Origin: Candidatus Bathyarchaeota archaeon
GTDB lineage: Archaea; Thermoproteota; Bathyarchaeia; Bathyarchaeales; Bathycorpusculaceae
Length of the DNA: 64,000 bases
Assembly (NCBI GenBank): GCA_963717465.1
Contig: OY970340.1
Span: 96,001-160,000 of the forward strand
Direction of reading: 5' to 3'
This document shows, piece by piece, positions 19,285-37,145 of the stretch (position 1 is the stretch's first letter; every line of letters begins with the position of its first letter). The notes beneath the pieces were generated by a model. It saw only the letters and a program-made list of their open reading frames with translations. It had not been told where the DNA came from and did not search any database. The position numbers and the translations under genes are program-made.

Positions 19285-20748
19285 TTATTCGATTCGTCTA
19301 ACTTGGCGTTTGGCTATTGCACTAAAGCTTTTATAGAAGCTACGTAAGACGCCTCCGTACCATCGCTCATCAAAGGACATACCGATTAAATTGTCTACCC
19401 AGCGAAAGTCATGTTCTGCGCATTGGAACATAAGTTTTACATGAAGATCGTTGAGTTTTGTATCGTTGAACCAGTTTTCACTGCGGAATCTGCCCAATGG
19501 AACGAAATACAATGGAACAATAAGGCTGCGGTAGTCTTTGATGTCATCCAAAAGCTCCATCGTTTTAATGATGTCTTCCTCACGTTCTTCTGGTAATCCT
19601 AAAATTAATGTTGCTGCAGGTACTAACTTGTTATCATGCATTAATCCCAATCCAGTATGGACAACTTCCTTCCAATTCTCAGCCTTGAATGGATGCGCTT
19701 TTGCAGGCATAATTTTTTTGGCAATTTCAGGAGAGCCTGTCTCTATACCTATTTCTACGCCCCACCATGATTGTTTTTGAAGAATTATCTCTGATAATTT
19801 GGCGAAAAGTTTTGGATTAGCTGCAACAGCAGCTAAAGAACAATGGCTCCAACTTATTTGTTGACAGCCTTTGATTGCATCAGTATGTAACTGTATAAGT
19901 TTTTTTTCGTCAGGGATAGTATTGTTTGAACCGTACAGCATAACATCTTCGGCGTGAAGGCACGCGCCTTTGACTTTGCCTGATTTTAAATTAACATTTA
20001 TTTCCCGCTTCACTTTTTCAACAGGGTACCACCTTAGCGGCCTTAGCGTAACGTTACAGAATTTGCAGCCTCTGCAACACCCCCGACCAATTTCAACTAA
20101 GCCATTAACTGAGGGCTGAGTTATGTCAGGTATTTGATCAATTGTAGGAGCTTCACCTATGTCAACCTTGTAGTGTTTGGGCAGTTCTTGCCCTTCGATT
20201 GCGGCTTTGAAGATTTTTCCAACTATATTTTCAGATTCGCCCTCAATAATGCAGTCAATTCCGGCTTTTCTAACAAAGTTTTCCCTGTATGGAAACTGCC
20301 ATACTCCAGGGCCACCAACAATGATTTTTAATCCATTCTTTTTGGCCTGTCTAATAGCCGGATTACTTAGTAGTCCCTCGAAATGCTGAGCTAAAAAGGG
20401 CTTTTTCTTAAGAACCGAAGCAAGAGTACTAGACGCTGGGCCTAATCCAAATGGATCCATGGTATGAATACCAAGCACTTTTGTATCGTTTAGAAACTTA
20501 CTTAGGTATCTTGGATCTACCGTGTTAACATCAAAGCCGTCCTTTAATAGTTGGGCTTCAGTTTTCCGAAGTCCGTATGGCGCTGTTTCTGGATGCCCAT
20601 GGCTTGTCTTGAGAGGTGGGAAAAAAAGATAACTAAATATAAAATCTGGTATAAAATTTGGAGGAGCACAGGTTCCAAACCCTAAGAATTCATTGTGATG
20701 ATAATTGCTCATTAAAGTTCTATCTGCTGTAAGAAGCACCTTATCCAT
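19285..20748 (-). CDS. B12-binding radical SAM protein, GDGT ring synthase (GrsA/B)-like family
   Basis: CCRGCKFC radical SAM motif. The N-terminal LTADR...APYGLRK...MDPFGL pattern is recalled from Grs-family proteins. Confidence 0.65.
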   Translation of the reverse strand: MDKVLLTADRTLMSNYHHNEFLGFGTCAPPNFIPDFIFSYLFFPPLKTSHGHPETAPYGLRKTEAQLLKDGFDVNTVDPRYLSKFLNDTKVLGIHTMDPFGLGPASSTLASVLKKKPFLAQHFEGLLSNPAIRQAKKNGLKIIVGGPGVWQFPYRENFVRKAGIDCIIEGESENIVGKIFKAAIEGQELPKHYKVDIGEAPTIDQIPDITQPSVNGLVEIGRGCCRGCKFCNVTLRPLRWYPVEKVKREINVNLKSGKVKGACLHAEDVMLYGSNNTIPDEKKLIQLHTDAIKGCQQISWSHCSLAAVAANPKLFAKLSEIILQKQSWWGVEIGIETGSPEIAKKIMPAKAHPFKAENWKEVVHTGLGLMHDNKLVPAATLILGLPEEREEDIIKTMELLDDIKDYRSLIVPLYFVPLGRFRSENWFNDTKLNDLHVKLMFQCAEHDFRWVDNLIGMSFDERWYGGVLRSFYKSFSAIAKRQVRRIE

Positions 20749-21040: not shown

Positions 21041-22402
21041 TTATCCCCATGTTGGGTAATCAAAACCCATATCTTTGAACTCTTTTGTAAATCGGTTATA
21101 GTGGTCCACTAATTCCTTCCTTGGTTTCAAAGTTTCCTGGTCATAGTATTCATAAAGGTTATGTGATAGCTGACCAAAGTCAAAAGCCTTCATAGCTGGT
21201 TCAAATTTCTTGATCCACTCTTTTATGAGCTTGTTGCCTTCACTTACTTTTGTTCCAGCCGCTGCTCTTGTGAATTCACTGCCAAACCTTGCGCTTATCG
21301 CAGGGAAAGTGCCTACCATCCACATTCCTTCTATCCCAGCTACACAACAAGTCATAACTGCCGCCGCTGTTCCATACCAGTCAACTTCATTCATAGGTTG
21401 ATTTAGACCAATTCCGCTAGTAAGCCATGGAGCTTTTATGTTTCTTTCTGCAGCTAAACCTACCGCTGAATTACTCCAAAAGACATCCGCACCTATGTAT
21501 TGATTATCAATGGTGTTGCTCATAGCCTGAGTGAATGAGCCATCAGCATAAGCCATCTGACCTATAGAGTGAGCCATAGATTCAAGTACTGATTCTTCTG
21601 GACCACTAATATACGCGTACAATGTAGGACTGGAACTCTGCCATGGAACAATTCCATGCTGCATAGCAAAGTAGGCAAGATTAATTCTATCAATGACTAT
21701 TCTCATGTCTTGCAGTATGTGTACTGGCATCATGCAGTTCCTAGGTGTGTAGTAGCCAGGGTCAAAAGCTTGCATCAAAGCAACCATGCTCGTTGCAGTC
21801 TCGGGAAAACCAAGTAACATGCCAGGTCTTCCAGCAGCACGCGCCGCAGCAGTCATCAGTTCACATTCAGTGTGAACCATCAGGGTTTCAGTAGGCGTTC
21901 CTCCTGTCGGTTTCTGACCAAAAGACGCCTCAATAATCGCGGGTATCATCCCGTCCGTCGTCGGTTCGCGAGCCATAAGATAAACAGCATCTCTCCATTG
22001 TCCTACGTCACTGCCCATCCAACCGCCAGCATTCAAACAGTATGGATGCTGCTTATCTTCAGGAGCTCTAATGTGCATTCTTAGTATATCTCTGCCTGTT
22101 CCCCACTCAACCTCATGCTTTCTTGTCTTAACAACTTCTTTAAGTTCATTTTCAGTGAACTTGACGAGGTGCTTAGTGTCTTTGCAATACAAACCGCATT
22201 GAACCAACAATTGTATGCCGGCTTCAAAAATAGCATCAGCCATTGCTGCATCCGACATAATTGGTTCGCCGTCAAATTTAATCTTGTAGTCTTGCACTAG
22301 TTTCTTGAGGATTGTTGGAAAATACGTGTTTTCAAATTCGTCTTCTTTCATTATTGGACCCGTTCGGGTTCTTTCTAAAACTTCCCACAATAAATGTCCC
22401 AT
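21041..22402 (-). CDS. MtmB-family corrinoid methyltransferase lacking pyrrolysine
   Basis: ERTRTGP, ADAIFEAG...G.YCKDT and AGRPGM..G.PET motifs. No in-frame TAG. Confidence 0.85.
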   Translation of the reverse strand: MGHLLWEVLERTRTGPIMKEDEFENTYFPTILKKLVQDYKIKFDGEPIMSDAAMADAIFEAGIQLLVQCGLYCKDTKHLVKFTENELKEVVKTRKHEVEWGTGRDILRMHIRAPEDKQHPYCLNAGGWMGSDVGQWRDAVYLMAREPTTDGMIPAIIEASFGQKPTGGTPTETLMVHTECELMTAAARAAGRPGMLLGFPETATSMVALMQAFDPGYYTPRNCMMPVHILQDMRIVIDRINLAYFAMQHGIVPWQSSSPTLYAYISGPEESVLESMAHSIGQMAYADGSFTQAMSNTIDNQYIGADVFWSNSAVGLAAERNIKAPWLTSGIGLNQPMNEVDWYGTAAAVMTCCVAGIEGMWMVGTFPAISARFGSEFTRAAAGTKVSEGNKLIKEWIKKFEPAMKAFDFGQLSHNLYEYYDQETLKPRKELVDHYNRFTKEFKDMGFDYPTWG

Positions 22403-22832: not shown

Positions 22833-23441
22833 TTAAGACACGTCAACGGGTACTTTTGATGTGTGATCGCTTGTATTTTTATTGGGATTTGATTGTTTTG
22901 AGAGGTCAAAAAGGGCTTCCAAGTTTCGCAGCGAAAACGGCATTGGGGCGGACTTGCCCGTATGAAACATGACAGCGTGGGTGTTAAAGTTTCTTGGTCG
23001 GTGTTGCATTACCATCGATTCTTTTTGTACTTCATTAAACAATTCGATATAATCGTCGTAACTCTTGTGCACTGATATTACAAACCAGTTATTTCCCGAT
23101 AAACCTAGATCTTCAAGAACGCATAATACCTGAGGGTGTTTTTTCATTAATGCACGAAATTCAGAAGGATGAGCTGCATTTACTGTCTCAGGCGTTGAGG
23201 CGAATGTAAATACGATAACGTTTAAGCCTAATTTGTGGAAATCAGGAATTACAGTGTATTCTTTTATGTAACCTTCCTGCTCCAGCTTTCTCCTTCTCCT
23301 GGACAATGTCGTATTATTTATTCCAAGAGTTTTTGCAATTTCCCTATCGCTTTTGCCACCTAGCGCCATCAGAGCGAACAAGACTTTCAGTTTTTCCTGA
23401 GTCTTCTTGTCCAACGCACCCTCTTTGTTGGAATTACTCAT
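22833..23441 (-). CDS. Lrp/AsnC-like transcriptional regulator (paralog 1)
   Basis: KSDREIAKTLGINNTTLSRRRRKLEQEGYIKEYT HTH followed by a RAM-like domain. Confidence 0.85.
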   Translation of the reverse strand: MSNSNKEGALDKKTQEKLKVLFALMALGGKSDREIAKTLGINNTTLSRRRRKLEQEGYIKEYTVIPDFHKLGLNVIVFTFASTPETVNAAHPSEFRALMKKHPQVLCVLEDLGLSGNNWFVISVHKSYDDYIELFNEVQKESMVMQHRPRNFNTHAVMFHTGKSAPMPFSLRNLEALFDLSKQSNPNKNTSDHTSKVPVDVS

Positions 23442-23682
23442 AGAGTGAAATACACTGCTGACAGTTTTAAGTTTTCTTATTTTGCATGTCTAATAATAAA
23501 ATAGTAATTTCATGCAAAAATATTGGCTTAAAACGCAACAAAATACTAACTCTTAACCTTTTTCCGCTCTTCCGCTTGATGAGTTTCCATATAGTTATCA
23601 TGAGACATAAAGAATAATCTGCTTATTAACGGAAGAAGAAAAGGGATTTTTTTGCTTGGATTTCTTAAGACGTCTTGGCAGT

Positions 23683-24102
23683 CTACTCTGGTAGACCTGG
23701 AAACTCGCCTTTAATCTGCTGATAAACCTTCTTTAATGGCTCTTCAACTGGCGCCATGAAACCCAGATCACCCAGGTCACCCGACAACAGTGACATGGCT
23801 CCTTGCGAAAACAACGCGTCAGCACCCATCTTACCAGACCACCAATCATTTAGGTATTTAAGCTTAAGATACTGAATAGCCGCATTAGCCTCATCAACAC
23901 TACCCTTATTCACAACCCACTTCTTACCCTTCGAACCAATCTGCCAAACAACATCAGGAACATCACCAATACTCAACTCAACAATCATGTCATTCTCCTG
24001 ATCCTTACACGCATCAATAATAGCAGGATCATCAGCAAGCTTAGAATACAACTTATACGCGAAATTCATCAACTTATCTTCATAAGACATAACATTTTCC
24101 AC
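23683..24102 (-). CDS. SCP2 (sterol carrier protein 2)-like lipid-binding protein
   Basis: Size and pattern (W.I...K..VNKG...A...SGKMGADALFSQGAM...GDL) fit the SCP2 fold. Confidence 0.6.
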   Translation of the reverse strand: MENVMSYEDKLMNFAYKLYSKLADDPAIIDACKDQENDMIVELSIGDVPDVVWQIGSKGKKWVVNKGSVDEANAAIQYLKLKYLNDWWSGKMGADALFSQGAMSLLSGDLGDLGFMAPVEEPLKKVYQQIKGEFPGLPE

Positions 24103-24182
24103 CTTTCATTTTAAATTTTAGATTTTATACAGAGAAAAGAAAAAGAGGATAGATATTTTTGTTTTTCGGTTTTGCAGTTTAT

Positions 24183-24836
24183 TTAAGTTTTGCCTACGAG
24201 CATTCGTGCTTTTTTGATTGCGTCGCCGCAGTCTGCACCCCAAGTATCAGCCTTAATCCGCTTGCAGAAATCATCAGTCATCGGAGTACCGCCAACAAGC
24301 ACCTTATACTTCTTACGCAACCCACGCTCAACAAGCGTATCTACTAATGCTCTCTGATACGACATACTGCTAGTCATCAACGCACCCATAGCAACAATAT
24401 CAGCATGAACCTCTTCAGCCTTCTTCACATAGTCCTCGGTTGGAATCTCTTCACCTAAGTCATAAACGTCAAAGCCATCGGTACGCAACATGTCAGCAAT
24501 CAAGTTCTTGCCGATGCTGTGGATGTCACCGAAAGCCGTGCCAATTACGACTATGCCTTTTGCCTTTGGCAGCTTGTCTTTGGGATACTTTTCTTTGAGA
24601 TAGTTAACTGCAGCAGTCATCGCGTTAGCAGCCATAATCACGTAGGGTAGAGGATATTCAAAGCGGCCAAAACGGTCACCAACCTCTTTGATGCCAACAG
24701 ATAAGCCTTTCTCGATAGCATCCATAATCTCCAGCTTGTTCTCAACAGCTTCTTTTGCCGCTGCAACAGCCTTTTCCTCATCATAGTCAATGATTGCTTT
24801 AGCGAGGTGTTCAAGTACTTCAGCTTTAGTTACCAT
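24183..24836 (-). CDS. Methyltransferase cognate corrinoid protein (MttC/MtbC-like), copy 1
   Basis: GDIHSIGKN B12-binding motif, GALMTSSM, VGG, and N-terminal cap domain. Confidence 0.95.
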   Translation of the reverse strand: MVTKAEVLEHLAKAIIDYDEEKAVAAAKEAVENKLEIMDAIEKGLSVGIKEVGDRFGRFEYPLPYVIMAANAMTAAVNYLKEKYPKDKLPKAKGIVVIGTAFGDIHSIGKNLIADMLRTDGFDVYDLGEEIPTEDYVKKAEEVHADIVAMGALMTSSMSYQRALVDTLVERGLRKKYKVLVGGTPMTDDFCKRIKADTWGADCGDAIKKARMLVGKT

Positions 24837-24861
24837 ATATGATTCCTTCTTTTTTGTCTCC

Positions 24862-26451
24862 TTAGAATCTTGCGCCTGTGCCTGATTTGTCTATTGTGTA
24901 GCCGCCGATCTGGTACATTTTATCGTATCTGGCTATGATTGCATTCATTCTGTCTGCTACTTCTTTTGGTGGCAGTGGAGCAGGGAAGTCTTTAATGATC
25001 TTCTGGGTTAAAGCGTTTGCACGATCATCCATGCATTTCTTGTCCTCGATCCATCGTAGATATTGTCTAACTTCCCACAAACCGTAACCGTGACGCATCG
25101 GAGCGAACATTAATTCCATCATATTTTTCACTGTATCCTTGTCCTTCATGAAGTCGCCTCTGGGACCCTTATTAAGCCACCCTTCAGGTTGGTAACTCTT
25201 GGCTGAAAAGTCAACGTCCCTGAAATACCACTTCATTATTCTAATCATTTCAGCGCATATAGCATAACCCATCATGTTGATTCCGTTTGGACCTACGGTT
25301 GTGGACCATTCTCCTGTCTGATCAGTACCGTTTTGGAATGCATTAAGCAAATGCCAACTCATCATGCCGTTTTGCGTATCAGAACCACCAGCGCCAACCG
25401 ATCCTACGGCTTGGCCAGGCCACATCGTAGCTTTTGGTCGACTGTAATTGCGGTGCCAGAAGTTCACGTGAATAGCAAGTGCCTTACTAAATATTTCTTC
25501 AGTGGTTGCTAATTGCTGAGTGTATGGGTCCATAGGCATGACCAGATCGTAAGTCATAACTGGGACATGGCCTTTCCCAACTCCGTTCAATCCCAAACTT
25601 AAACCTACTGACATCGATAAAGCTGCGGCAACAGTAACTGCGTAAGCTCCCGTTAAGCTGCATGGACCTTGGAATCCAGGTATGCAAACATCTGTGTAGT
25701 CTATAAGCAGAGGTCTGCTCTTCGCCCAGCCTTCTAAAGTTCCGCTCATTCTGTCACTTGTTTTTTGGCCGTAAACTAGACCTGGTGTGTCTCCATGGTT
25801 AGTTATGAATGGTCTCTTCGCAAGCTCATCAAATCCTCCGAGAACCTCAGCGGCTAAATCAGTGTAACATTCAATATGATCAATTGCGTCAATATGCCAA
25901 ATATGCTTTGTAGTGCATTGAATAGTACTGTTGAGATCATGAGTATCCACTGGCAAACCAGCCTCAGCCAAATCCATAGGTAAGTATATGGGGCTAGTCA
26001 TGTCATACTCGGGGAAGTACTCAACAACTTTTTGCTCTTTCCAGTTGTCAGCATCTACTCCATCTCGGAATTCAAATAGTCGTGTATCAGGATTCCATTT
26101 TGCATAAAGGGCCATTATGCCGAAAGCTCCAACAAAGACATTGTTGCTTCCTGCTTGCATAAAGCAGTCTTCTTTAGGAGCCCTACCTGGCAGAACCAAG
26201 TTGCTCGGCACTGCGTCTATGCCTTCGACTGCAATAGCTTCAGGAATTTTTACGATTCCCTTCTTCTCATCAACAACGGTGCAACCTATGTCTTTGTAGA
26301 TTTTTTGAAGCTTAGGTGTGAGACCTCCAACCCCAACTCTTTCTAATAGATAAACTGCGGCTTGATGTATTGACATTAGTTCTTCTCTCGTCGCTATAGG
26401 CGGAGAAAATCTCTTAGGTATATTTGTTCCAGTTCTCATTTTTCTTTTCAA
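24862..26451 (-). CDS. MttB-superfamily methyltransferase, pyrrolysine-free, copy 1
   Basis: IHQAAVYLLERVG, GPCSLTG, D.Q.G, GPRGDF and PLPPKEV..MNAII pattern; directly upstream of the corrinoid gene; no TAG. Confidence 0.8.
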   Translation of the reverse strand: MKRKMRTGTNIPKRFSPPIATREELMSIHQAAVYLLERVGVGGLTPKLQKIYKDIGCTVVDEKKGIVKIPEAIAVEGIDAVPSNLVLPGRAPKEDCFMQAGSNNVFVGAFGIMALYAKWNPDTRLFEFRDGVDADNWKEQKVVEYFPEYDMTSPIYLPMDLAEAGLPVDTHDLNSTIQCTTKHIWHIDAIDHIECYTDLAAEVLGGFDELAKRPFITNHGDTPGLVYGQKTSDRMSGTLEGWAKSRPLLIDYTDVCIPGFQGPCSLTGAYAVTVAAALSMSVGLSLGLNGVGKGHVPVMTYDLVMPMDPYTQQLATTEEIFSKALAIHVNFWHRNYSRPKATMWPGQAVGSVGAGGSDTQNGMMSWHLLNAFQNGTDQTGEWSTTVGPNGINMMGYAICAEMIRIMKWYFRDVDFSAKSYQPEGWLNKGPRGDFMKDKDTVKNMMELMFAPMRHGYGLWEVRQYLRWIEDKKCMDDRANALTQKIIKDFPAPLPPKEVADRMNAIIARYDKMYQIGGYTIDKSGTGARF

Positions 26452-26498
26452 TCTCCCGTTATTTATTTGAATCTGTAAGTCTAAGTCGCCTTGTTAGG

Positions 26499-26610
26499 TA
26501 TTTAACTTAAATCATAAGCGATTCTCTTCTTCTGCTACAAAACTTGTCTGCCCACAGAAATAACCATCAAGATTGCTTCATTATGAGACGTTTTTTAATA
26601 CATTGTGCAA
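26499..26610 (-). promoter_or_regulatory. Regulon promoter module 2 (mttB-like 1)
   Basis: tatttaac, ttctgctacaaaa, and tacattgtg at 100 bp. Confidence 0.8.
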
Positions 26611-26776
26611 AATTTTTTTTGGCTTTTAACGAGAAAAGCAGTAAGACGCGATTAGTGAAAGAAGTCTTCAGGAAAAAAGTCTTGCGTAACACCAGGCGTT
26701 TTCAGTATATAAACACATTCGGCTTCTAAGCGACATACAAAAATTAAGAAAATAAAAAGGGGAGTGTAGTTGTTTT

Positions 26777-29092
26777 TTATGGTCCAATAGGTCCGATGTT
26801 GGCTGAGTACACTTTTGCAAGATTAACTTTGAAGCACCAAGCTCCAAGTTCAGGACTAAGCTGCTCTGGACTATCTGGCACTGTAACGTTGATGTTCCAG
26901 TCTGCCCATCCATAAAGTGTTGGTTCCTCAGCTGGTAATTCAGGACGCCACCAGCCATGCTCGGGTGAAACGATTTTTGGATTTACTCCGAAGTCGTAAC
27001 GTACTGTCTGCATGCATCTGCCAAGCGGCGTCTCAATGTAAATCCATTCGCCATCGCCAATGCCCATGTTACGAGCCGTCAGTGGATGCATTTTTACACG
27101 TGGAAACGGACGCAAATGACGCATCAATGTTAAATGTCGATGTTCGCCATGCTGTGCTTCTTGGAATCTGGCTCCACTGCACATAATCAACGGATAATCT
27201 TTTGCAATATCAGGCGCACTTACCGGAGTCCAAGCGCACTCCACATAGTACGGCAGAGGATCAAACCCAAAGTCCTCCAGAATCGTTGAGTAGAATACAA
27301 CTTTGCCTTCAGGGGTTCCGAAGCCTCTAATCAATCCAGTGGTTGGATCAATTTGCTCGTACTTCTTGAACGTGGGGTTCCATGGTGGTACACCTTTCCA
27401 TTCGCCTATAACTTGCTTACGTGTCCAGCCTACTGGCTCATAGAACCAATCTTGGAACTGCTCTAAAGTCTTCCATTTCCAAACTCTATCGATTTTTTCG
27501 TTACCCAACATTTTAGCAGCAATGTGTCGGAATATTACCGCGTCGTCTTCTAAGTCCCACAATCCCGGTATCTTTTGAGCTACTGCACGATCGCCTGCAA
27601 TCTCAAACTCGATTGATCCTTGACATGAAATGGTTGCATATCCAGAAGGTCTCTCGAATTGACTAGTACCAGGCAGCACATAATCTGCTAACATGGCCTC
27701 AGGTGTCATCGAAGCGCATTCCACATAAACGAACAGTTCAAGCTTCTTAAGAGCTTCATAAATCTTCTTAGTGTTCGGATAACCTCGCATTGGACCTATT
27801 TCACCAGCCAACATCGCCTTAACAGGGTAAGGTTTTTCCGTCAAAATTGCCTCTATCGTTGCAGGCCAATTTGGAGCAATTGGTCCGGTATGTGGACCAC
27901 CCTTCCAATAGCCTTTGTCCATTCCTGCCTCAACAAGCGCTGCACCACCTGGCATCGTTAGCATCTTATACTTGTCCGACCCTATCTGTTTCTCCATTAT
28001 GCCCATATCAGTTTCATTAGCACAATCTGCAGCGGCTTCAGCACCCGAATAGAACTTGGGTTTTTGGTGCAGATATTCTCCGCCTTCTATGTCTATGTTG
28101 CCTGTTAACGCGGGCAGCATATATTTTGATCGAACGTTGTTTAATGAGTTCCTGCCTGCCGATTCGATTGCATAACCGAATGGGAAAGTGCATGGACTGT
28201 TTTTCACTACCCACCTAGCTGCCTCTCTGATTCTCTCGGCAGGAATCCAAGTTATTTCCGCAGCTTTCTCAGGAGTATACTGCTTGGCTCTTTCTTTGAG
28301 CTTGTCAAATCCAAAAGTCCACTTCTCCACGAAATCATGATCGTACAAGTCTTCTTCGATGATCACGTTTATCATAGCCATATTTAGTGCAGTGTCAGTT
28401 CCAGGCCTAATCGCCAACCACATTTCAGAAAGTCTAGTTGTTTCCGTATATTTTGGATCGACATTGAGCATTTTTACGCCAGCCTCTATTCCTGCAACAA
28501 ATCCTGGCCAAGAATACGTCCAAGATTCACTTGGGTTTGTGCCAGTTGTAAAGATACCCTTTGTTTTACCGGGAGTTATCATTGCATACGTTAATCCCAC
28601 GCCGTAGCCTAATCCTAAGGCTTGGTACGTGGGTCCAGCTCATGTGGTAGCTGCAGCAGAACCCCAGTTTGGGGAGCCTATCAACATACAGAGTTGATAC
28701 AGTCCCAAAGCAAGGTTTGCGGCTCGACCTGTGCCGTGGAATCCGCATACGGATTCGCCGCCATTCTTTGCTATGATTTCTTTTAGTTTATCAGATATTT
28801 CACTAATTGCTTGTTCCCAAGATATTTTCTGCCATTTGCCTTCGCCACGCTTGCCTATACGCTTCATCGGGTACATTGGCCTATCCTTATGATAAATGTA
28901 CTCAACACCATACTTCCACTTCTGACAATAAGGACCAGGATTAAATGGACTATCCCAATCAGGCTCAATCTTTGTGATTTTTCCGTTCTCAACCGTCTCG
29001 ACAAGTTGGCAGGAACCAGTACTGCAAAAACCGCAAACGCATCTATGAATCCCATCGAAACTCTTTGGATCTTCAAGTTTTTCACTCATCAT
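26777..29092 (-). CDS. Mo/W-bis-PGD oxidoreductase, acetylene-hydratase-like clade, copy 1; 771 aa with in-frame TGA (codon 151, probable selenocysteine)
   Basis: CxxCxxxxC..C Fe-S motif, ISWEQA, IRPGTD, ADYVLP and HGWW motifs. ORFs 28640..29092 and 26777..28600 are in the same frame and separated only by TGA at 28642-28640. Confidence 0.9.
28596..28633 (-). promoter_or_regulatory. SECIS-like hairpin 6 nt downstream of the in-frame UGA (copy 1)
   Basis: CCCACG-UA-CC-A-AGCCU-UAGGAUU-AGGCU-AC-GG-CGUGGG; conserved in the paralog. Confidence 0.7.
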
Positions 29093-29167
29093 TCTATCTC
29101 CTATTTTCTCTTTAACCCATTTTTATTGTGCTTTCAACACAAGCCTTAACATATGCGGTCTGATTAC

Positions 29168-30762: not shown

Positions 30763-31341
30763 TTAAGAACGGGATTTAAGGGGTTTTCGAGTTGAAATTT
30801 CAGGTTGGAATAAAGCATTCAAGCTTCGCAATGAGAACGGCCTTGGAAACTTATTGCCTGTGCGGAACATAACGCTACGTGTTTCCACATGTGGTCGCTG
30901 AGGTAATAACAGTGTTTCTTTTTGCACTTCCTTAGACAATTCTACGAAACCATCATAGTTCTTATGCACAGATATCATGACCCAGTTCGTTGATTCTAAG
31001 CCTTGATCCTCTATAGCGCAAAGCACTTCAGGATGTCTCTGCATTAATTCACGAACTTTGCTAGTTTGTTCTGGTGTTATCACTTCAGTAGTTGAGGCAA
31101 ATGTAAATACGATAACATCTAGCCCCATTTTGTACAAGTTAGGGATTATAGTGTACTCTTTTATGTAACCATCCTGCTCCAGCTTCCTTCTCCTCCTAGA
31201 CAATGTCGTGTTACTAATTCCTAAAATTCTAGCAATTTCTCTATCGCTTTTACCGCCTAGCGCCATTAAGGCAAATAGAACTTTCAGGTTTTCCAAGGCT
31301 TTTCTATCTAACGTATCGTGCGTGCTCAAAAACTTATTCAT
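30763..31341 (-). CDS. Lrp/AsnC-like regulator (paralog 2)
   Basis: Same HTH as 22833..23441. Confidence 0.85.
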   Translation of the reverse strand: MNKFLSTHDTLDRKALENLKVLFALMALGGKSDREIARILGISNTTLSRRRRKLEQDGYIKEYTIIPNLYKMGLDVIVFTFASTTEVITPEQTSKVRELMQRHPEVLCAIEDQGLESTNWVMISVHKNYDGFVELSKEVQKETLLLPQRPHVETRSVMFRTGNKFPRPFSLRSLNALFQPEISTRKPLKSRS

Positions 31342-31484
31342 ACCAATGCATTATTCAACATAAAGCTTTAAATTTTTTTATTTCACATAGTGTGCCGAAT
31401 TAAAAAATTGAAGTTCTATTACTTTAAAAAATTCTGGAAAGTTTTGGTTTTTCTTATTTTAAGCATTACGTTGTCTGAGTAATT

Positions 31485-32090
31485 CTATGCATCAATGGGG
31501 TTGATTGTCTTGCCATCCCGCTTGTTTTTGACGCCATGCAATGGTTTGACAGATTGAAACAATGATTCCATGTTTCTGAACGAGAATGGTTTTGGAAACA
31601 TCTTATCCGTATGAAACATGAAAGTGTGAGTTTCGATGTGCGGTGGTTGATGAAGGGATAGTAATTCGTTTTGCACTTTTTTAGACAGGTCTATGAAACC
31701 ATCATAGTTCTTGTGCACAGTTATGCCAAGCCAGTTTGTACCTTCTAAACCTTGATCTTGTAGTATGCACAGAATTTCGGGATATTTCTGAATTAAATCA
31801 TGAGCCTCTTTAGATTGCACTGGTGTCACAACATCAGTAGTAGATGAAAAAGAAAACACTATAACCTCTAATCCCATTTTATGCAAATCAGGAATTATAG
31901 TATACTCTTTTATGTAACCATCCTGCTCCAGCTTCCTTCTCCTCCTAGACAATGTGGTATTACTAATCTCCAAAATCCGGGCAATCTCTCTGTCACTTTT
32001 ACCACATAACGCCATTAGAGCAAACAAAACTTGCAGGTTTTCCAGTAGCTTCTTATCTAACGTATCTTGCTTGCCCAAAAGCTTATTCAC
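31485..32090 (-). CDS. Lrp/AsnC-like regulator (paralog 3)
   Basis: Same HTH as paralogs 1 and 2. Confidence 0.85.
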   Translation of the reverse strand: MNKLLGKQDTLDKKLLENLQVLFALMALCGKSDREIARILEISNTTLSRRRRKLEQDGYIKEYTIIPDLHKMGLEVIVFSFSSTTDVVTPVQSKEAHDLIQKYPEILCILQDQGLEGTNWLGITVHKNYDGFIDLSKKVQNELLSLHQPPHIETHTFMFHTDKMFPKPFSFRNMESLFQSVKPLHGVKNKRDGKTINPIDA

Positions 32091-32254
32091 CCAATGTAGT
32101 ATTCACCAAAGCGGCTTTAAGTCTTTTCGTTTGACATCGAGACTAAACCAAAAATAACGACTTACCTAAAACAAAGTTTTAATTGAGATAACCAGCCAAG
32201 ACTATAAATAAAAAAGAAAAAGACAGAAGTCTCTGTCTTAGTTTTATTGCTTAT

Positions 32255-32908
32255 TTAGGTTTTGCCTACGAGCATTCGTGCCTTCTTAATGGCGTCACCG
32301 CAGTCTGCACCCCAAGTATCAGCCTTAATCCGCTTGCAGAAATCATCAGTCATCGGAGTACCGCCAACAAGAACCTTATACTTCTTACGCAACCCACGCT
32401 CAACAAGCGTATCAACGAGTGCTCTCTGATAAGACATACTGCTAGTCATCAACGCACCCATAGCAACAATATCAGCATGGACCTCTTCAGCCTTCTTCAC
32501 ATAATCCTCAGTTGGAATCTCTTCACCTAAATCATAAACATCAAAGCCATCAGTACGCAACATATCAGCAATCAAGTTCTTACCAATACTGTGAATATCA
32601 CCAAACGCTGTACCAATAACAACTATGCCTTTTGCCTTTGGCAGCTTATCTTTGGGATACTTTTCCTTGAGATAATTAACTGCAGCAGTCATCGCATTAG
32701 CAGCCATAATCACGTAGGGTAGTGGGTATTCGAAGCGGCCAAAGCGGTCACCAACTTCTTTGATGCCAACGGATAAGCCTTTCTCGATAGCGTCCATAAT
32801 CTCCAGCTTGTTCTCAACAGCCTCTTTAGCCGCTGCAACAGCCTCATCCTCATTATAATCAATGATAGCCTTAGCCAAATGCTCAAGAACTTCAGCCTTA
32901 GTCACCAT
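32255..32908 (-). CDS. Corrinoid protein, copy 2
   Basis: 214 of 217 residues identical to 24183..24836. Confidence 0.95.
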   Translation of the reverse strand: MVTKAEVLEHLAKAIIDYNEDEAVAAAKEAVENKLEIMDAIEKGLSVGIKEVGDRFGRFEYPLPYVIMAANAMTAAVNYLKEKYPKDKLPKAKGIVVIGTAFGDIHSIGKNLIADMLRTDGFDVYDLGEEIPTEDYVKKAEEVHADIVAMGALMTSSMSYQRALVDTLVERGLRKKYKVLVGGTPMTDDFCKRIKADTWGADCGDAIKKARMLVGKT

Positions 32909-32932
32909 AAAAATTCCCTTCTTTTGTCTCCT

Positions 32933-34507
32933 TTAGAATCTGGCGCCCGTTCCTGTTTTGTCTGCCGTGTAGCCGCCTATTTGGTACATCTTATCATACT
33001 TAGCAATAATTTCATTCATTTTGTCAGCTACGTCTTTTGGTGGTAATGGATTTGGAAATTCCTTTACGATCTTGTTAGTCAGGGCGAAAGCGCGATCATC
33101 CATGGTAAGCTTGTCTTCAATCCACCGAAGATATTGCCTCGTTTCCCATAAGCCATAACCATGACGCATAGGATAGAAGCCAGTATCTACCATGTTTTGC
33201 AAAGTGTATTTTTCCTTCATGAAGTCTCCTCTTGGGGTCTTCGTGAGCCATACATCTTTCATGTATGCGCCGGATGAAAAGTCTAAGTCCTTGAAATACC
33301 ATGTCATCATTCGAAGCATTTCAGCTGTCACAGCATAGCCCCATGGATTGATTCCATTCGGACCTACGGTGGAACTCCAACATCCTGTCTGATCAGTAGC
33401 GCTTTGGAGGGCGTTAAACAGATTGTAACTCATTAGGCCATTTTGTGTGTCTGAACCGCCACTGTAACCTCCTATGCTTTGTCCAGGCCACATTGTTGCT
33501 TTTGGCAAACTGTAGTTGCGGTGCCAGAAGTTCACATGAAGAGATAGCGCTTTACCGAATTGATCACCACATGCTGCTAGCATTTGCGTGTACGGCTCCA
33601 TGGGCATCACCAGATCATAGGTCATGACGGGGATATGGCCTTTTGCGACTCCGCCCATTCCCAAACCTAAACTTACCGCCATTCCTATAGATGAAGCCAC
33701 AGTCACTGAGTAGGCGCCCGTTAAGCTAATGGGACCTTGGAAACCAGGTATGCACACGTCAGTGAAATCTATAAGCAGAGGCCTGTTATTCTTCCAGCCT
33801 TCCAACGTACCAGTCATTCTGTCGCAAGTCTTTTGTCCATAAACTAAGCCTGGAGTGTCTCCATGGTTAGTTATGAACGGTCTCTTCGCAAGCTCATCAA
33901 ATCCTCCAAGAACCTCAGCAGCTAAATCAGTATAGCATTCAATATGATCAATTGCATCAATATGCCAAATATGCTTGGTAGTACATTGAATAGTGCTGTT
34001 AAGATCATGAGTATCCACTGGCAAACCAGCCTCAGCCAAATCCATAGGCAGGAAAATTGGGCTCGTCATATCGAACTCTGGGAAGTACTCAACAATTTTC
34101 TGCTCTCTCCAGTTGTCAGCGTCAACACAGTCTCTGAATTCAAAAAGTCGCGTAGCCGGATTCCATTTACCATAGAGAGCCATAATCCCAAAACCGCCTG
34201 CAAGAGTTCTGTTGCTTCCAGCGGATAAGAAACAGTCATTCTGGGGCGTCCTACCTGGCAAAATCTGCTCACTTGGTATTGCATTTACGGCTTCTACTGC
34301 AAGACCCTGAGACATCTTAGCAATTCCTTTCTTCTCGTCAACAGTGCAACCTAAATCCTTATAGACTTTGCAAAGCTTAGGAGTAACGCCTCCTACTCCA
34401 ATTCTTTCCAGCAGAAACATTGCGGCTTCATGGATTGACATTAATTCTTCTTTCGTTGCTAAAGAAGGGTTAGTGAACCTTCTAGGTACATTTATTCCTG
34501 TTCTCAA
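32933..34507 (-). CDS. MttB-superfamily methyltransferase, pyrrolysine-free, copy 2
   Basis: Full-length paralog of 24862..26451. Confidence 0.8.
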   Translation of the reverse strand: MRTGINVPRRFTNPSLATKEELMSIHEAAMFLLERIGVGGVTPKLCKVYKDLGCTVDEKKGIAKMSQGLAVEAVNAIPSEQILPGRTPQNDCFLSAGSNRTLAGGFGIMALYGKWNPATRLFEFRDCVDADNWREQKIVEYFPEFDMTSPIFLPMDLAEAGLPVDTHDLNSTIQCTTKHIWHIDAIDHIECYTDLAAEVLGGFDELAKRPFITNHGDTPGLVYGQKTCDRMTGTLEGWKNNRPLLIDFTDVCIPGFQGPISLTGAYSVTVASSIGMAVSLGLGMGGVAKGHIPVMTYDLVMPMEPYTQMLAACGDQFGKALSLHVNFWHRNYSLPKATMWPGQSIGGYSGGSDTQNGLMSYNLFNALQSATDQTGCWSSTVGPNGINPWGYAVTAEMLRMMTWYFKDLDFSSGAYMKDVWLTKTPRGDFMKEKYTLQNMVDTGFYPMRHGYGLWETRQYLRWIEDKLTMDDRAFALTNKIVKEFPNPLPPKDVADKMNEIIAKYDKMYQIGGYTADKTGTGARF

Positions 34508-34570
34508 TTTTTTTCTCTCCTAATTTTTAATTGTTTTTGACACGAAATTAAATATATGCGGTCTGATGTG

Positions 34571-34682
34571 TATTTAAGGTTAAATTATAAGTCAGTTTCA
34601 GCTTTTGCCACAAAATAAGACATTTCAACAATTGTCAATGACATTATCACATAATGAACAGAGTTTTTGGCACAATGTGCAA
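34571..34682 (-). promoter_or_regulatory. Regulon promoter module 7 (mttB-like 2)
   Basis: tatttaag, ttttgccacaaaa, and cacaatgtg at 100 bp. Confidence 0.8.
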
Positions 34683-34828
34683 CAATATATTTTGAACCTT
34701 TATCTGAAAAATCACAAATCAGAAAACATTTTAAAAGGAAAACAAGAAAACAAATGTCCGTTTTTTCACATTAACGATAAATAAGCAACTAAACAAAAAA
34801 ATAAAAAAAGAGTATTGAGGTTTTCTTC

Positions 34829-37145
34829 TTAAGGTCCCATGGGCCCGATGTTGGCTGAGTATACTTTTGCAAGATTAGCCTTGAAGCACCATGCACCAAG
34901 TTCAGGGCTAAGATGCTCTGGGCCGTCAGGCACTGTAACGTTAATGTTCCAGTCTGCCCATCCATAAAGCGTTGGTTCCTCAGCCGGCAACTCAGGACGC
35001 CACCAGCCGTGTTCTGGGTCGATTATCTTGGGGTTAACACCAAAATCATAACGTACTGTCTGTCTGCATCTGCCAAGCGGTGTTTCAATGTAAACCCATT
35101 CGCCATCTCCGATACCCATATTCCGTGCTGTAAGTGGATGCATCTTTACACGTGGAACCGGACGTAAATGACGCATTAACGTGAGATGTCGATGTTCACC
35201 ATGCTGCGCTTCTTGGAATCTGGCTCCACTGCACATAATCAGCGGATAGTCTTTTGCAATGTCTGGTGCACTGATCGGTGTCCATGCACATTCCACATAG
35301 TACGGCAACGGATTGTACCCAAGTTCTTCTAAGATGGTTGAGTAGAACGCAACTTTGCCCTCAGGGGTACCAAAGCCTCTAACCAGCCCAGTCTCTGGAT
35401 CGATCTCTTCGTATTTCTTGAACCTTGGCTCATAGGGCGGAACACCCTTCCATTCTTCAATAACTTGCTTTCGTGTCCAACCAGCGGGCTCGTAGAACCA
35501 AGCTTGAAATTCCTCTAGAGTCTTCCAATGCCAAACTTCATCAACTCTTTGTTTACCGACAACGGCGACAGCTAGGTCTCTGAATATGATGCTGTCGTCT
35601 TTTAGATCCCAAAGTCCAGGTATTTTCTGGGGTAGTGCGCGGTCGCCTGCAATCTCAAACTCAATCTGGCCTTGACATGAACAGGTTGCGTACCCAGATG
35701 GCCTCTCAAATTGACTGGTACCGGGCAGCACGTAATCTGCTATCATAGCCTCTGGAGTCATGGAAGCGCATTCTACGTAAACAAAGAGGTCAAGTTTCTT
35801 TAAAGCCTCGTAAACTTTCTTGGTGTTCGGATAGCCTCTCATGGGACCTACTTCACCGGAAAGCATAGCTTTAATGGGGTATGGTTTTCCCGTTAAAATC
35901 GTATCTATCGTGCTAGGGAAGTTTGGACCTATTGGCCCAGCGGATGGAACTCCCTTCCAGTATCCTTTATCCATTCCTGCAGCAATAATTGCACCTGCGC
36001 CAGGATAAGCCAGCATCTTATACTTGTCCGCTCCTATCTGGTTTGACATCATTGACATGTCACAAGCGTTTATGACATCAGTATGCATCTCAGTACCTGA
36101 GTGGAATTTGGGTTTTGCATGCAGATATTCGCCGCCTTCTACGTCAATGTTGCCTGTTAACGCAGGTAACATATATTTTGATCGGATGTTGCTCAAAGAG
36201 TTCCTGCCTGCTGATTCGATTGCGTAGCCGAATGGAAAATCGCATGGATGATTTTTCGCTATAAATCGGGCAGCTTCTTTTATCTTTTCAGCTGGAATCC
36301 AAGTAATTTCCGCAGCCTTCTCAGGCGTATACTGCTTAACGCGCTCTTTGAGCTTATCAAATCCAAAACACCATTTCTCCACAAAATCATGATCATACAA
36401 GTCCTCCTCAATGAGAACGTTCAACATAGCCATATTCAGCGCAGTATCAGTTCCAGGCCTAATTGCTAACCAAACTTCTGAAAGTCTACCAGTCTCAGTA
36501 AATCTTGGATCAACAGTGAGCATTTTTACGCCAGCATCTACACCTGCAACAAACCCAGGCCACGAATACGTCCAAGACTCTCTTGGGTTCGTACCAGATG
36601 CAAAGATACCCTTAGTCTTACCAGGAATTATGTTTGCATACGTTAATCCCACGCCATAGCCTACTCCTAAGGCTTGGATCGTGGGTCCGGCTCATGTCTG
36701 AGCAGCAGCGGAACCAAAGTTTGGGCTACCCATCATGATAAAGAAAGCAGCCTGTCCAAGACCCAGATTCGCAGCTTCGCCCGGTGCCGCTAAAGCCGCA
36801 AATTGATTCTCCACCGTACTTTTCCTTGATTTCTTTCACTTTTGTGGATATTTCTTCGGTCGCTTGTTCCCATGATATTCTTTGCCATTTGCCTTCTCCA
36901 CGTTTGCCTATTCTTTTTATTGGATACATCGGTCTGTCCTTGTTGTAAATGTATTCTAAACTGTACTTCCATTTTACACAATAGGGGCCCGGATTGAACG
37001 GGCTTTCCCAATCAGGCTCGACCTTTGTGATTTTTCCATTCTCAACAGTCTCAACAAGTTGACAGGAACCAGTACTGCAAAAACCGCAAACACACCTGTG
37101 AATCCCATCGAAACTCTTTGGATCTTCAAGTTTTTCACTCATCAT
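34829..37145 (-). CDS. Mo/W-bis-PGD oxidoreductase, copy 2; in-frame TGA at 36694-36692; one extra base near 36776 (probable sequencing indel)
   Basis: Span is 2317 nt, i.e. copy 1 length plus 1. The corrected frame reads GTGRAANLGLG...GSPNFGSAAAQT-TGA-AGPTIQALG. Confidence 0.88.
36648..36685 (-). promoter_or_regulatory. SECIS-like hairpin 6 nt downstream of the in-frame UGA (copy 2)
   Basis: CCCACG-AU-CCA-AGCCU-UAGGAGU-AGGCU-A-UGG-CGUGGG. Confidence 0.7.

Follow-up and report, generated by a model that had tools for sequence, protein, structure and literature searches.

The subject of this analysis is a hairpin that lies immediately downstream of an in-frame UGA codon in a gene for a molybdenum or tungsten (Mo/W) bis-pterin oxidoreductase of a Bathyarchaeial archaeon. 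The gene is located on contig OY970340.1 (assembly GCA_963717465.1), in a window of 64,000 nucleotides (positions 96,001 to 160,000 of the forward strand) to which all positions given below refer. The present analysis suggests that the hairpin is probably a UGA-adjacent, cis-acting signal for the recoding of UGA to selenocysteine (Sec), which lies within the open reading frame (ORF), as the bacterial signals do, and is used by an archaeal machinery. It is likely to be the functional counterpart, in this Bathyarchaeial lineage, of the element called selenocysteine insertion sequence (SECIS). The structure is conserved, is restricted to the Sec forms of the genes, and occurs in a fixed register at three unrelated sites, and no conserved structure was found in the 5' or 3' flanks of these genes.

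The window contains two copies of the gene, copy 1 (paralog p1) and copy 2 (paralog p8), whose coordinates are provided in Table 1. The protein of copy 1 has the Pfam domains PF04879, PF00384, and PF01568, which are the Fe4S4, molybdopterin, and dinucleotide-binding parts of the Mo/W bis-pterin oxidoreductases, and its closest solved relative is the acetylene hydratase 2e7z (E 1.5e-102, residues 18-755 of the query). The residue encoded by the UGA, U151, is aligned with the Cys of the MYMCIGNT motif in 2e7z, which we take to be the tungsten ligand. A UGA opposite this Cys, in a genome that has the Sec machinery (see below), identifies the gene as a selenoprotein gene. The enzyme thus has the fold and the ligand position of acetylene hydratase and of further Mo/W bis-pterin enzymes whose ligand is Cys or Sec. 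It differs from acetylene hydratase in having Sec rather than Cys at this position, and in the linkage of its gene to those of an MttB-like methyltransferase and a corrinoid protein. In copy 2, one extra A near window position 36777 (minus strand), as judged against three paralogs, shifts the frame 82 nt before the TGA, so that this copy is either a pseudogene or affected by an assembly error.

The stems, the loops, and the 6-nt distance from the UGA that were described in the first-pass annotation of this DNA are seen in both copies, on the minus strand. As also described there, the copies differ at only 5 of the first 57 nt past the TGA. The differences affect one spacer position, two positions of the internal loop, and one of the apical loop, while the remaining one is a C-to-U change by which an A-U pair is gained. 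The 66-nt fold of copy 1 has an energy of -22.2 kcal/mol (z -2.87, with 1 of 200 shuffles as good), and that of copy 2 an energy of -21.8 kcal/mol (z -2.16, 8 of 200). The contribution of the encoded peptide was assessed by synonymous recoding, in which the peptide is kept fixed and the codons are resampled according to the genome usage, with 1000 trials per site. The number of recodings as stable as the native sequence is 3 for p9a, 9 for p7, 18 for p11, 32 for p6, and 81 for copy 1. Because of the latter number, the signal at the single site is modest, and the weight of the case for a putative recoding element comes from the comparison with other sites and other genomes.

When the copy 1 protein is compared with its own genome, 20 matching places are obtained, 11 of which contain exactly one TGA, in all cases in the same column. 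The proteins of these 11 paralogs are 42-81% identical to copy 1, and the genome has at least eight intact copies of the enzyme gene and three broken ones. A helix is present right after the UGA in all 11 paralogs, with a spacer of 6 nt in ten of them and of 7 nt in p11, the one with 42% identity, in which the lower stem is shifted by one base. RNAalifold, a check proposed in the first-pass annotation, recovers both stems (11 pairs) de novo from the 11 sequences. In the 14-pair structure, 89% of the cells are paired, compared to 22-47% when the 3' partners are slid. Changes on both sides of a pair are found at 5 of the 14 pairs, a number that is reached in 2 of 500 shuffles. In p2 and p4 a U-A pair is replaced by C-G through two synonymous Leu codons, while in p11 four pairs are changed, some of them together with residue changes. 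The lower-stem pairs built of third codon positions (CCC with GUG, and ACG with GGC) are invariant in all ten close paralogs. The synonymous-codon identity among eight paralogs is 0.765 over codons U+1 to U+15, relative to a gene mean of 0.564 (sd 0.078), which gives this segment rank 4 among 758 windows of codons. A second peak of synonymous identity is seen at codons ~250-270 (about 28280-28345 in copy 1); its value for the segment starting at codon 250, 0.765, matches that of the hairpin peak, and it could originate from gene conversion or from another RNA element.

The hairpin was also sought after the other in-frame TGAs of the genome, as had been proposed at the outset. The scan considered all 3442 in-frame TGAs that are flanked on both sides by 15 or more open codons, a limit at which short genes could be missed. 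The 54 nt after these TGAs have a mean folding energy of -7.4 kcal/mol (sd 3.7), and -18 is reached by 1% of them. Of the candidates that show coding signal to either side of the TGA, the strongest two are the Sec codons of an HdrA-MvhD fusion, namely U212 (-25.8 kcal/mol) and U682 (-22.8 kcal/mol). Both helices have a 6-nt spacer and a 6-bp lower stem, and the native energy is matched by none of the 1000 recodings at U212 and by 5 of 1000 at U682. Counted from the U of the UGA, the apical loop starts at nt 26 in copy 1 and HdrA and at nt 23 in MvhD, and it holds a G. The three hairpin classes share one architecture, in which the 6-nt spacer is followed by a lower stem of 6 bp and, past an interruption, by an upper stem with a loop of 5-7 nt. 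A helix of at least 5 bp in the six-nt register with a minimum free energy of -16 or lower is present at 12 of the 14 Sec sites, compared to 3 of the 3428 other in-frame TGA candidates. Counted per independent gene family, the register rule holds in three of four, the exception being the genome's own selD.

The search thus succeeded for HdrA and MvhD, while selD fits less well. A selD gene is found in 10 of 151 Bathyarchaeia genomes, and 4 of these 10, the host genome included, carry a TGA. The three distant Sec selD genes (44-46% identity) all have a helix after a 6-nt spacer, and the host gene departs from the rule in the manner discussed below; selD is therefore mixed evidence and not clean support. 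A number of further candidates were rejected. For the 40 read-through candidates with the best coding signal, Pfam revealed no additional selenoprotein but only neighbouring genes that share a frame. Of the candidates with a hairpin, the best 24, as well as 7 in-register ones, either look non-coding or have a TGA that is a true stop, and none of the three non-Sec candidates that pass the register test looks coding.

The Sec genes were compared with their Cys relatives for HdrA-MvhD, which was searched for in 301 Bathyarchaeia genomes and found in 241, with 30 loci compared initially and 14 further ones afterwards. Four of the 30 loci have TGA at both positions, and all four retain both hairpins (-20.7 to -26.8 and -22.8 to -23.5 kcal/mol). 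The other 26 have Cys codons and are 67-81% identical over the tested segments, with local peptides nearly the same as those of the Sec genes, and none of them keeps either hairpin. At the HdrA site these Cys genes fold with -5.6 to -13.4 kcal/mol; at the MvhD site the folds are inconsistent and range from -8.9 to -20.8 kcal/mol. Among the 14 further loci, one (a broken gene from the same genus) has both TGAs and both hairpins, and 13 have Cys at both sites, such that both hairpins are kept in five of five Sec HdrA-MvhD genes. HdrA homologs that appeared to contain one TGA were also considered as Sec genes and rejected, as the TGA in these 13 remoter loci is not at the Sec positions.

For the Mo/W enzyme, a scan of genome contigs with the copy 1 protein gave no relative, and relatives were taken instead from the genome search and from one metagenome scan. 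In other genomes of the phylum and in the host's Cys paralog, the U151 column contains 23 Cys, 1 His, and no TGA, and an equivalent helix was not found in the 23 Cys-aligned relatives, apart from those at L047/L061 and L059, to which we return below. Of 534 metagenomic relatives the best 80 were considered, and alignment at the U151 column was possible for 77 of these, which have Cys there in 73 cases, TAT in 2, CGG in 1, CAC in 1, and TGA in none. The first-pass annotation had named two observations that would speak against the hairpin, namely equal conservation in Cys-encoding homologs and absence from other TGA-containing homologs. Neither was made: the hairpin is missing from the Cys HdrA-MvhD genes and has no equivalent in the Cys Mo/W relatives with the above exceptions, and it is present in every TGA-bearing paralog and at both UGAs of every Sec HdrA-MvhD gene.

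The flanks of the genes were searched for a separate SECIS. T-tracts begin about 15-25 nt past the stop codons of both copies, and they occur soon after the stop in all eight intact paralogs; those 3' of copy 1 are likely an archaeal terminator. The first-pass annotation was thus right about the U-rich tracts near both stops, but its conclusion that they leave little room for an element in the 3' untranslated region (UTR) was overstated, because the distance from the stop to the next ORF is about 320-325 nt in copies 1 and 2 and physical room for a 3' element therefore exists. The stop codon is ~60 nt before the next gene in selD and ~50 nt in p6. When applied to eight paralogs, RNAalifold gives no pairs in 200 nt of 5' flank or in 250 nt of 3' flank, while the same procedure applied to the UGA and the following 60 nt gives 12 pairs; it also gives no pairs for the 260 nt 3' of five Sec hdrA genes. 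The SECIS families of Rfam have no match at E values up to 5 in 55,971 bases from 11 loci.

The host is an archaeon, as the first-pass annotation had concluded. The window encodes a family-B DNA polymerase (PolB), an archaeosine TGT with DUF5591, and TYW2, as well as an S-layer domain, and the genome, a single contig of 3.05 Mb, belongs to Bathyarchaeia. Its Sec machinery is also archaeal. SepSecS is found with 488.9 bits, together with two tRNA-Sec genes and a SelD gene that carries an in-frame TGA of its own. PSTK and SelB are encoded in one open frame, in two genes of 744 and 740 codons, with the Pfam domains KTI12/PSTK, GTP_EFTU, D2, and aSelB_III. Residues 288-739 of the fusion align with residues 19-478 of the 482-residue Methanococcus SelB (4ac9), that is, end to end for the aSelB part. 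The protein has all the parts of an archaeal PSTK-aSelB fusion, as a single frame encodes KTI12/PSTK, domains I-III of the EF-Tu type, and a short domain IV of the archaeal kind. When the two SelB genes are compared with the bacterial SelB model of 581 positions, their matches are confined to positions 2-338 or 3-324. The best match to SelA in the genome has 20.5 bits, far below the cut-off of 267.9, and a search for the winged-helix domain PF09107 of bacterial SelB, which detects the E. coli control, found nothing in the genome. The proposal that SelB might have bacterial C-terminal winged-helix domains is thus not borne out. The suggestion of a bacterial-type or new mode of UGA decoding survives in its second form, given the conserved RNA structure after a Sec-type UGA, but not as a bacterial machinery.

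The fusion has 372 relatives at E <= 1e-20, and those with organism names belong to Bathyarchaeota or Bathyarchaeia, plus one Nitrososphaerota and one Nanoarchaeia; a search of the protein atlas with the fusion returned only CysN/CysC-type look-alikes. An Asgard host, which was also considered, was rejected because the organisms named for these relatives indicate Bathyarchaeia. The fusion is present in all five genomes with Sec hdrA or Sec selD that were tested. In three relatives (G396:C5, G558:C23, and G570:C9) the PSTK-aSelB gene and an hdrA-mvhD gene with two Sec codons are 5-7 kb apart and make up a Sec island, and a tRNA-Sec-like sequence is visible in L119; in the host genome the hdrA-mvhD and PSTK-aSelB genes are ~570 kb apart. 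The second PSTK-aSelB gene of the host (G000:C1:2827363-2829725, loci L009 and L002, outside the window) adjoins the second tRNA-Sec. The two fusion copies share 54% identity, and in the second one the GTPase motifs look degenerate by eye (EMPGN versus DLPGH, SKID versus NKID, and GHCKHGKT).

It is instructive to compare the hairpin with the known elements. The bacterial SECIS, such as that of E. coli fdhF, is likewise an in-ORF stem-loop that follows the Sec UGA at a distance of a few nucleotides and has an apical loop containing G. The distance of 23-26 nt from the U to the apical loop found here is within the range of the published bacterial consensus model, in which this loop lies 16-37 nt from the UGA. 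The present case differs in the helix starting 6 nt after the UGA and in the use of the PSTK/SepSecS route, with neither the winged-helix reader of SelB nor SelA found in the genome. As the bacterial reader and synthesis route are absent, the hairpin is not a member of the bacterial SECIS family. The Sec redefinition elements (SREs) of eukaryotes, as those of SEPN1 and SELENOP are described in the available parts of the literature, are also in-ORF stem-loops beside the UGA; however, SREs accompany an obligatory SECIS in the 3'UTR and occur in only some genes, whereas here no UTR element was found in the searched flanks and every Sec UGA of three families has a hairpin. The methanogen SECIS (eaSECIS) and the eSECIS-like elements of Asgard archaea are archaeal as well and function with a machinery of the same type (PSTK, SepSecS, and aSelB). 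According to the accessible part of PMC11227280, they are located in UTRs and contain either GAA_A with three G-C pairs or an AUGA_GA core. In the methanogen type GAA_A is a bulge, and the three pairs are consecutive G-C/C-G pairs of the upper stem; the Asgard and eukaryotic type, found in the 3'UTR, also has an apical loop rich in A. In contrast, the present hairpin is in frame and has neither the GAA_A of the methanogen elements nor the AUGA_GA kink-turn core of the Asgard and eukaryotic ones.

The PSTK-aSelB fusion of Bathyarchaeota has already been published, as seen from excerpts of PMC8762117 and PMC9499178, and the host genome has this same system, in two copies. The word SECIS is absent from the main texts of PMC8762117 and PMC5424206 and from one supplementary file of the former, and the accessible portions of PMC9499178, PMC8211752, and PMC9723677 do not describe a Bathyarchaeial SECIS. 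In the full-text literature, which leaves subscription journals and figures outside, no description was found of a SECIS in Bathyarchaeia or of an in-ORF SECIS in any archaeon. Reviews, in the passages available, place the archaeal and eukaryotic SECIS in UTRs and only the bacterial one in the ORF, and state that no archaeal SECIS-binding factor is known. The published lists of Asgard selenoproteins, to the extent that they are accessible, include no molybdopterin enzyme.

On the basis of these comparisons, a mechanism can be envisaged in which the hairpin would drive Sec insertion as the main or only signal. Since the helix starts after a 6-nt spacer, it would be placed at the mRNA entry channel when the UGA occupies the ribosomal A site. 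A helix 6 nt past the A-site codon, at the mRNA entry of the ribosome, is where stimulators of read-through and frameshifting are found, and the spacer of the SEPN1 SRE is also 6 nt. The helix may slow the ribosome or hinder the release factor, and thereby mark the UGA, while its upper part would be presented to the PSTK-aSelB/Sec-tRNA complex or to an adaptor. The delivery complex would be archaeal, with the PSTK-aSelB fusion acting together with SepSecS, SelD, and tRNA-Sec. The architecture that is shared without a sequence motif argues for recognition by shape and position. That the fusion itself reads the helix is a speculation. A more far-reaching proposal, which we consider possible but tentative, is that Bathyarchaeia, and perhaps other archaea having the fusion, possess a third, independently evolved form of Sec decoding, in which an entry-site helix is read directly by the fusion and no UTR SECIS is needed. 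The RNA-binding PSTK part or domain IV would then serve as the tether, in the role that the winged-helix domains have in bacterial SelB.

Several observations weigh against the hairpin being the recoding signal. The recoding of copy 1 gives a z value of only -1.48, with the 81 equally stable variants mentioned above, which is modestly above what its Gly/Ala/Pro-rich peptide would predict. The both-sided changes derive from only about two lineages, p11 on the one hand and p2 with p4 on the other, and the 11 paralogs constitute one family. No sequence motif is common to the three hairpin classes, and specific recognition by one factor is therefore not evident; in addition, the available parts of the literature report no in vitro binding of SECIS by methanogen aSelB. 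The host selD has only -9.1 kcal/mol in the 54 nt after its TGA. Its long helix (-40.8 kcal/mol over 120 nt, with 1 of 1000 recodings as stable) begins after 9 nt, and this helix, 9 nt after the Sec or Cys codon, is common to the Sec gene and to the Cys orthologs of the same genus (L161-L166). In the Mo/W family, L047/L061 (which are the same place) and L059 have a helix 6-7 nt past a Cys codon, with -14.9 and -18.6 kcal/mol; they may be former Sec genes or the result of chance. These loci belong to other Thermoproteota genomes. Finally, our own GAA_A-type and AUGA_GA-type patterns occur in 0 of 11 gene flanks and in almost none of 600 control flanks, but this search had no positive control, such that it is weak evidence and a distant SECIS is still conceivable.

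The last point leads to an alternative in which the hairpin is a mere enhancer, similar to the SREs, and the obligatory SECIS is located elsewhere, far downstream in the operon or in trans. SREs are reported, in the parts of the literature available, to be stem-loops beside some eukaryotic Sec UGAs that enhance recoding without being essential. Similarly, in the accessible account of the Methanococcus 3'UTR SECIS, the element acts over 520-679 nt in a reporter, so that an archaeal SECIS works across hundreds of nucleotides. The unexplained spacer of ~320 nt after copies 1 and 2 and the lack of a motif common to the hairpins are also consistent with an enhancer. However, the flanks of the eight paralogs and of the five Sec hdrA genes yielded no consensus structure, no Rfam SECIS match was obtained, the T-tracts begin within about 15-25 nt of the stops, and the hairpin is found at every Sec UGA of three families, unlike the patchy pattern reported for SREs. 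We therefore regard an enhancer as unlikely, although it deserves to be taken seriously.

It is quite improbable that the hairpin has no role in decoding, being either a by-product of the codons for a Gly/Ala/Pro-rich peptide or a structure with another purpose, e.g., mRNA stability. The recoding result for copy 1 is what one would expect from a by-product, and the residues P-T and V-G dictate 4 of the 6 pairs in the lower stem. However, the third-position pairs are invariant and the synonymous variation is suppressed, p11 keeps the pairing despite both-sided changes that alter residues, and the HdrA and MvhD hairpins have energies that recoding hardly reaches and are missing in all 26 Cys orthologs, although the local peptides of these are near-identical. 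Even less probable, to the point of being very improbable, is that the hairpin is the relic of a bacterial SECIS in a gene acquired from a Sec-using bacterium. The element is placed as bacterial SECIS elements are, and the nearest full-length relatives with a named source, at about 38-40% identity, belong to Dehalococcoidales, Chloroflexota, and Pseudomonadota. However, a relic is made unlikely by the absence of TGA at the U151 column of the 77 aligned metagenomic relatives; TGA is also lacking there in the relatives that were aligned from other genomes of the phylum, the archaeal genes hdrA and mvhD bear analogous hairpins, and the helix is constrained within the archaeal paralogs. From these alignments, the Sec form and its hairpin look like an invention of this lineage rather than an imported bacterial selenoprotein gene.

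If the hairpin is indeed the recoding signal, the occurrence of an archaeal Sec machinery and UGA-adjacent hairpins in one lineage would break the rule that the archaeal SECIS is found only in UTRs, and the hairpin and the PSTK-aSelB fusion would offer a compact pair, with a short and portable recoding signal for engineering. Surveys of 3' flanks would overlook selenoproteins of this kind. An in-frame Sec UGA would also explain why gene callers truncate such genes, as all close homologs listed in the protein collection have lengths of about 440-607 aa. The archaeal selenoproteins gain a Mo/W acetylene-hydratase-like family, with at least eight intact copies in one genome. Should the hairpin in addition be read directly by the fusion, as in the third form of decoding outlined above, this would represent a convergence with bacteria and would name, for this lineage, the long-sought archaeal SECIS reader.

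Table 1. Positions in the window of the enzyme gene copies, their hairpins, and the associated genes
Feature	Position	Strand	Remarks
Copy 1 (p1), acetylene-hydratase-like Mo/W bis-pterin oxidoreductase	26777..29092	-	771 aa; sole in-frame stop is TGA (U151)
Copy 1, Sec-type UGA codon	28640..28642	-	From translation; same TGA column in 11 paralogs of the genome
Copy 1, six-nt spacer from UGA to helix	28634..28639	-	GCUGGA
Copy 1, in-frame hairpin	28596..28633	-	Lower stem CCCACG/CGUGGG; internal loop UACCA/ACGG; upper stem AGCCU/AGGCU; loop UAGGAUU
Copy 1, 3' flank	26735..26776	-	TTTTT, TTTT, and TTTTT tracts from ~20 nt past TAA; putative terminator
Copy 2 (p8), same enzyme, broken frame	34829..37145	-	Two pieces, residues 1-132 and 118-771
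Copy 2, Sec-type UGA codon	36692..36694	-	
Copy 2, in-frame hairpin	36648..36685	-	Loop UAGGAGU; one additional A-U pair
MttB-superfamily methyltransferase, downstream of copy 1	24862..26451	-	PF06253; TIGR02369 113 bits, below cut-off
Second MttB-superfamily methyltransferase, downstream of copy 2	32933-34507		
Corrinoid (B12-binding) protein	24183..24836	-	Second copy at 32255-32908

The surroundings of the two copies are the result of a tandem duplication of one cassette, which comprises a helix-turn-helix regulator, the Sec Mo/W enzyme, the MttB-like methyltransferase, and the corrinoid protein, and which extends over 22833-29092 and 30763-37145. At 21041-22402 on the minus strand is a homolog of MtmB of 453 aa, encoded in a single open frame without an in-frame TAG, and this gene is adjoined by a radical SAM gene at 19285-20748. 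At the 5' end of the enzyme gene, TAGGAGATA is conserved a few bases upstream of the ATG in most of eight paralogs (~29093-29110 in copy 1), and it is likely a ribosome-binding site.

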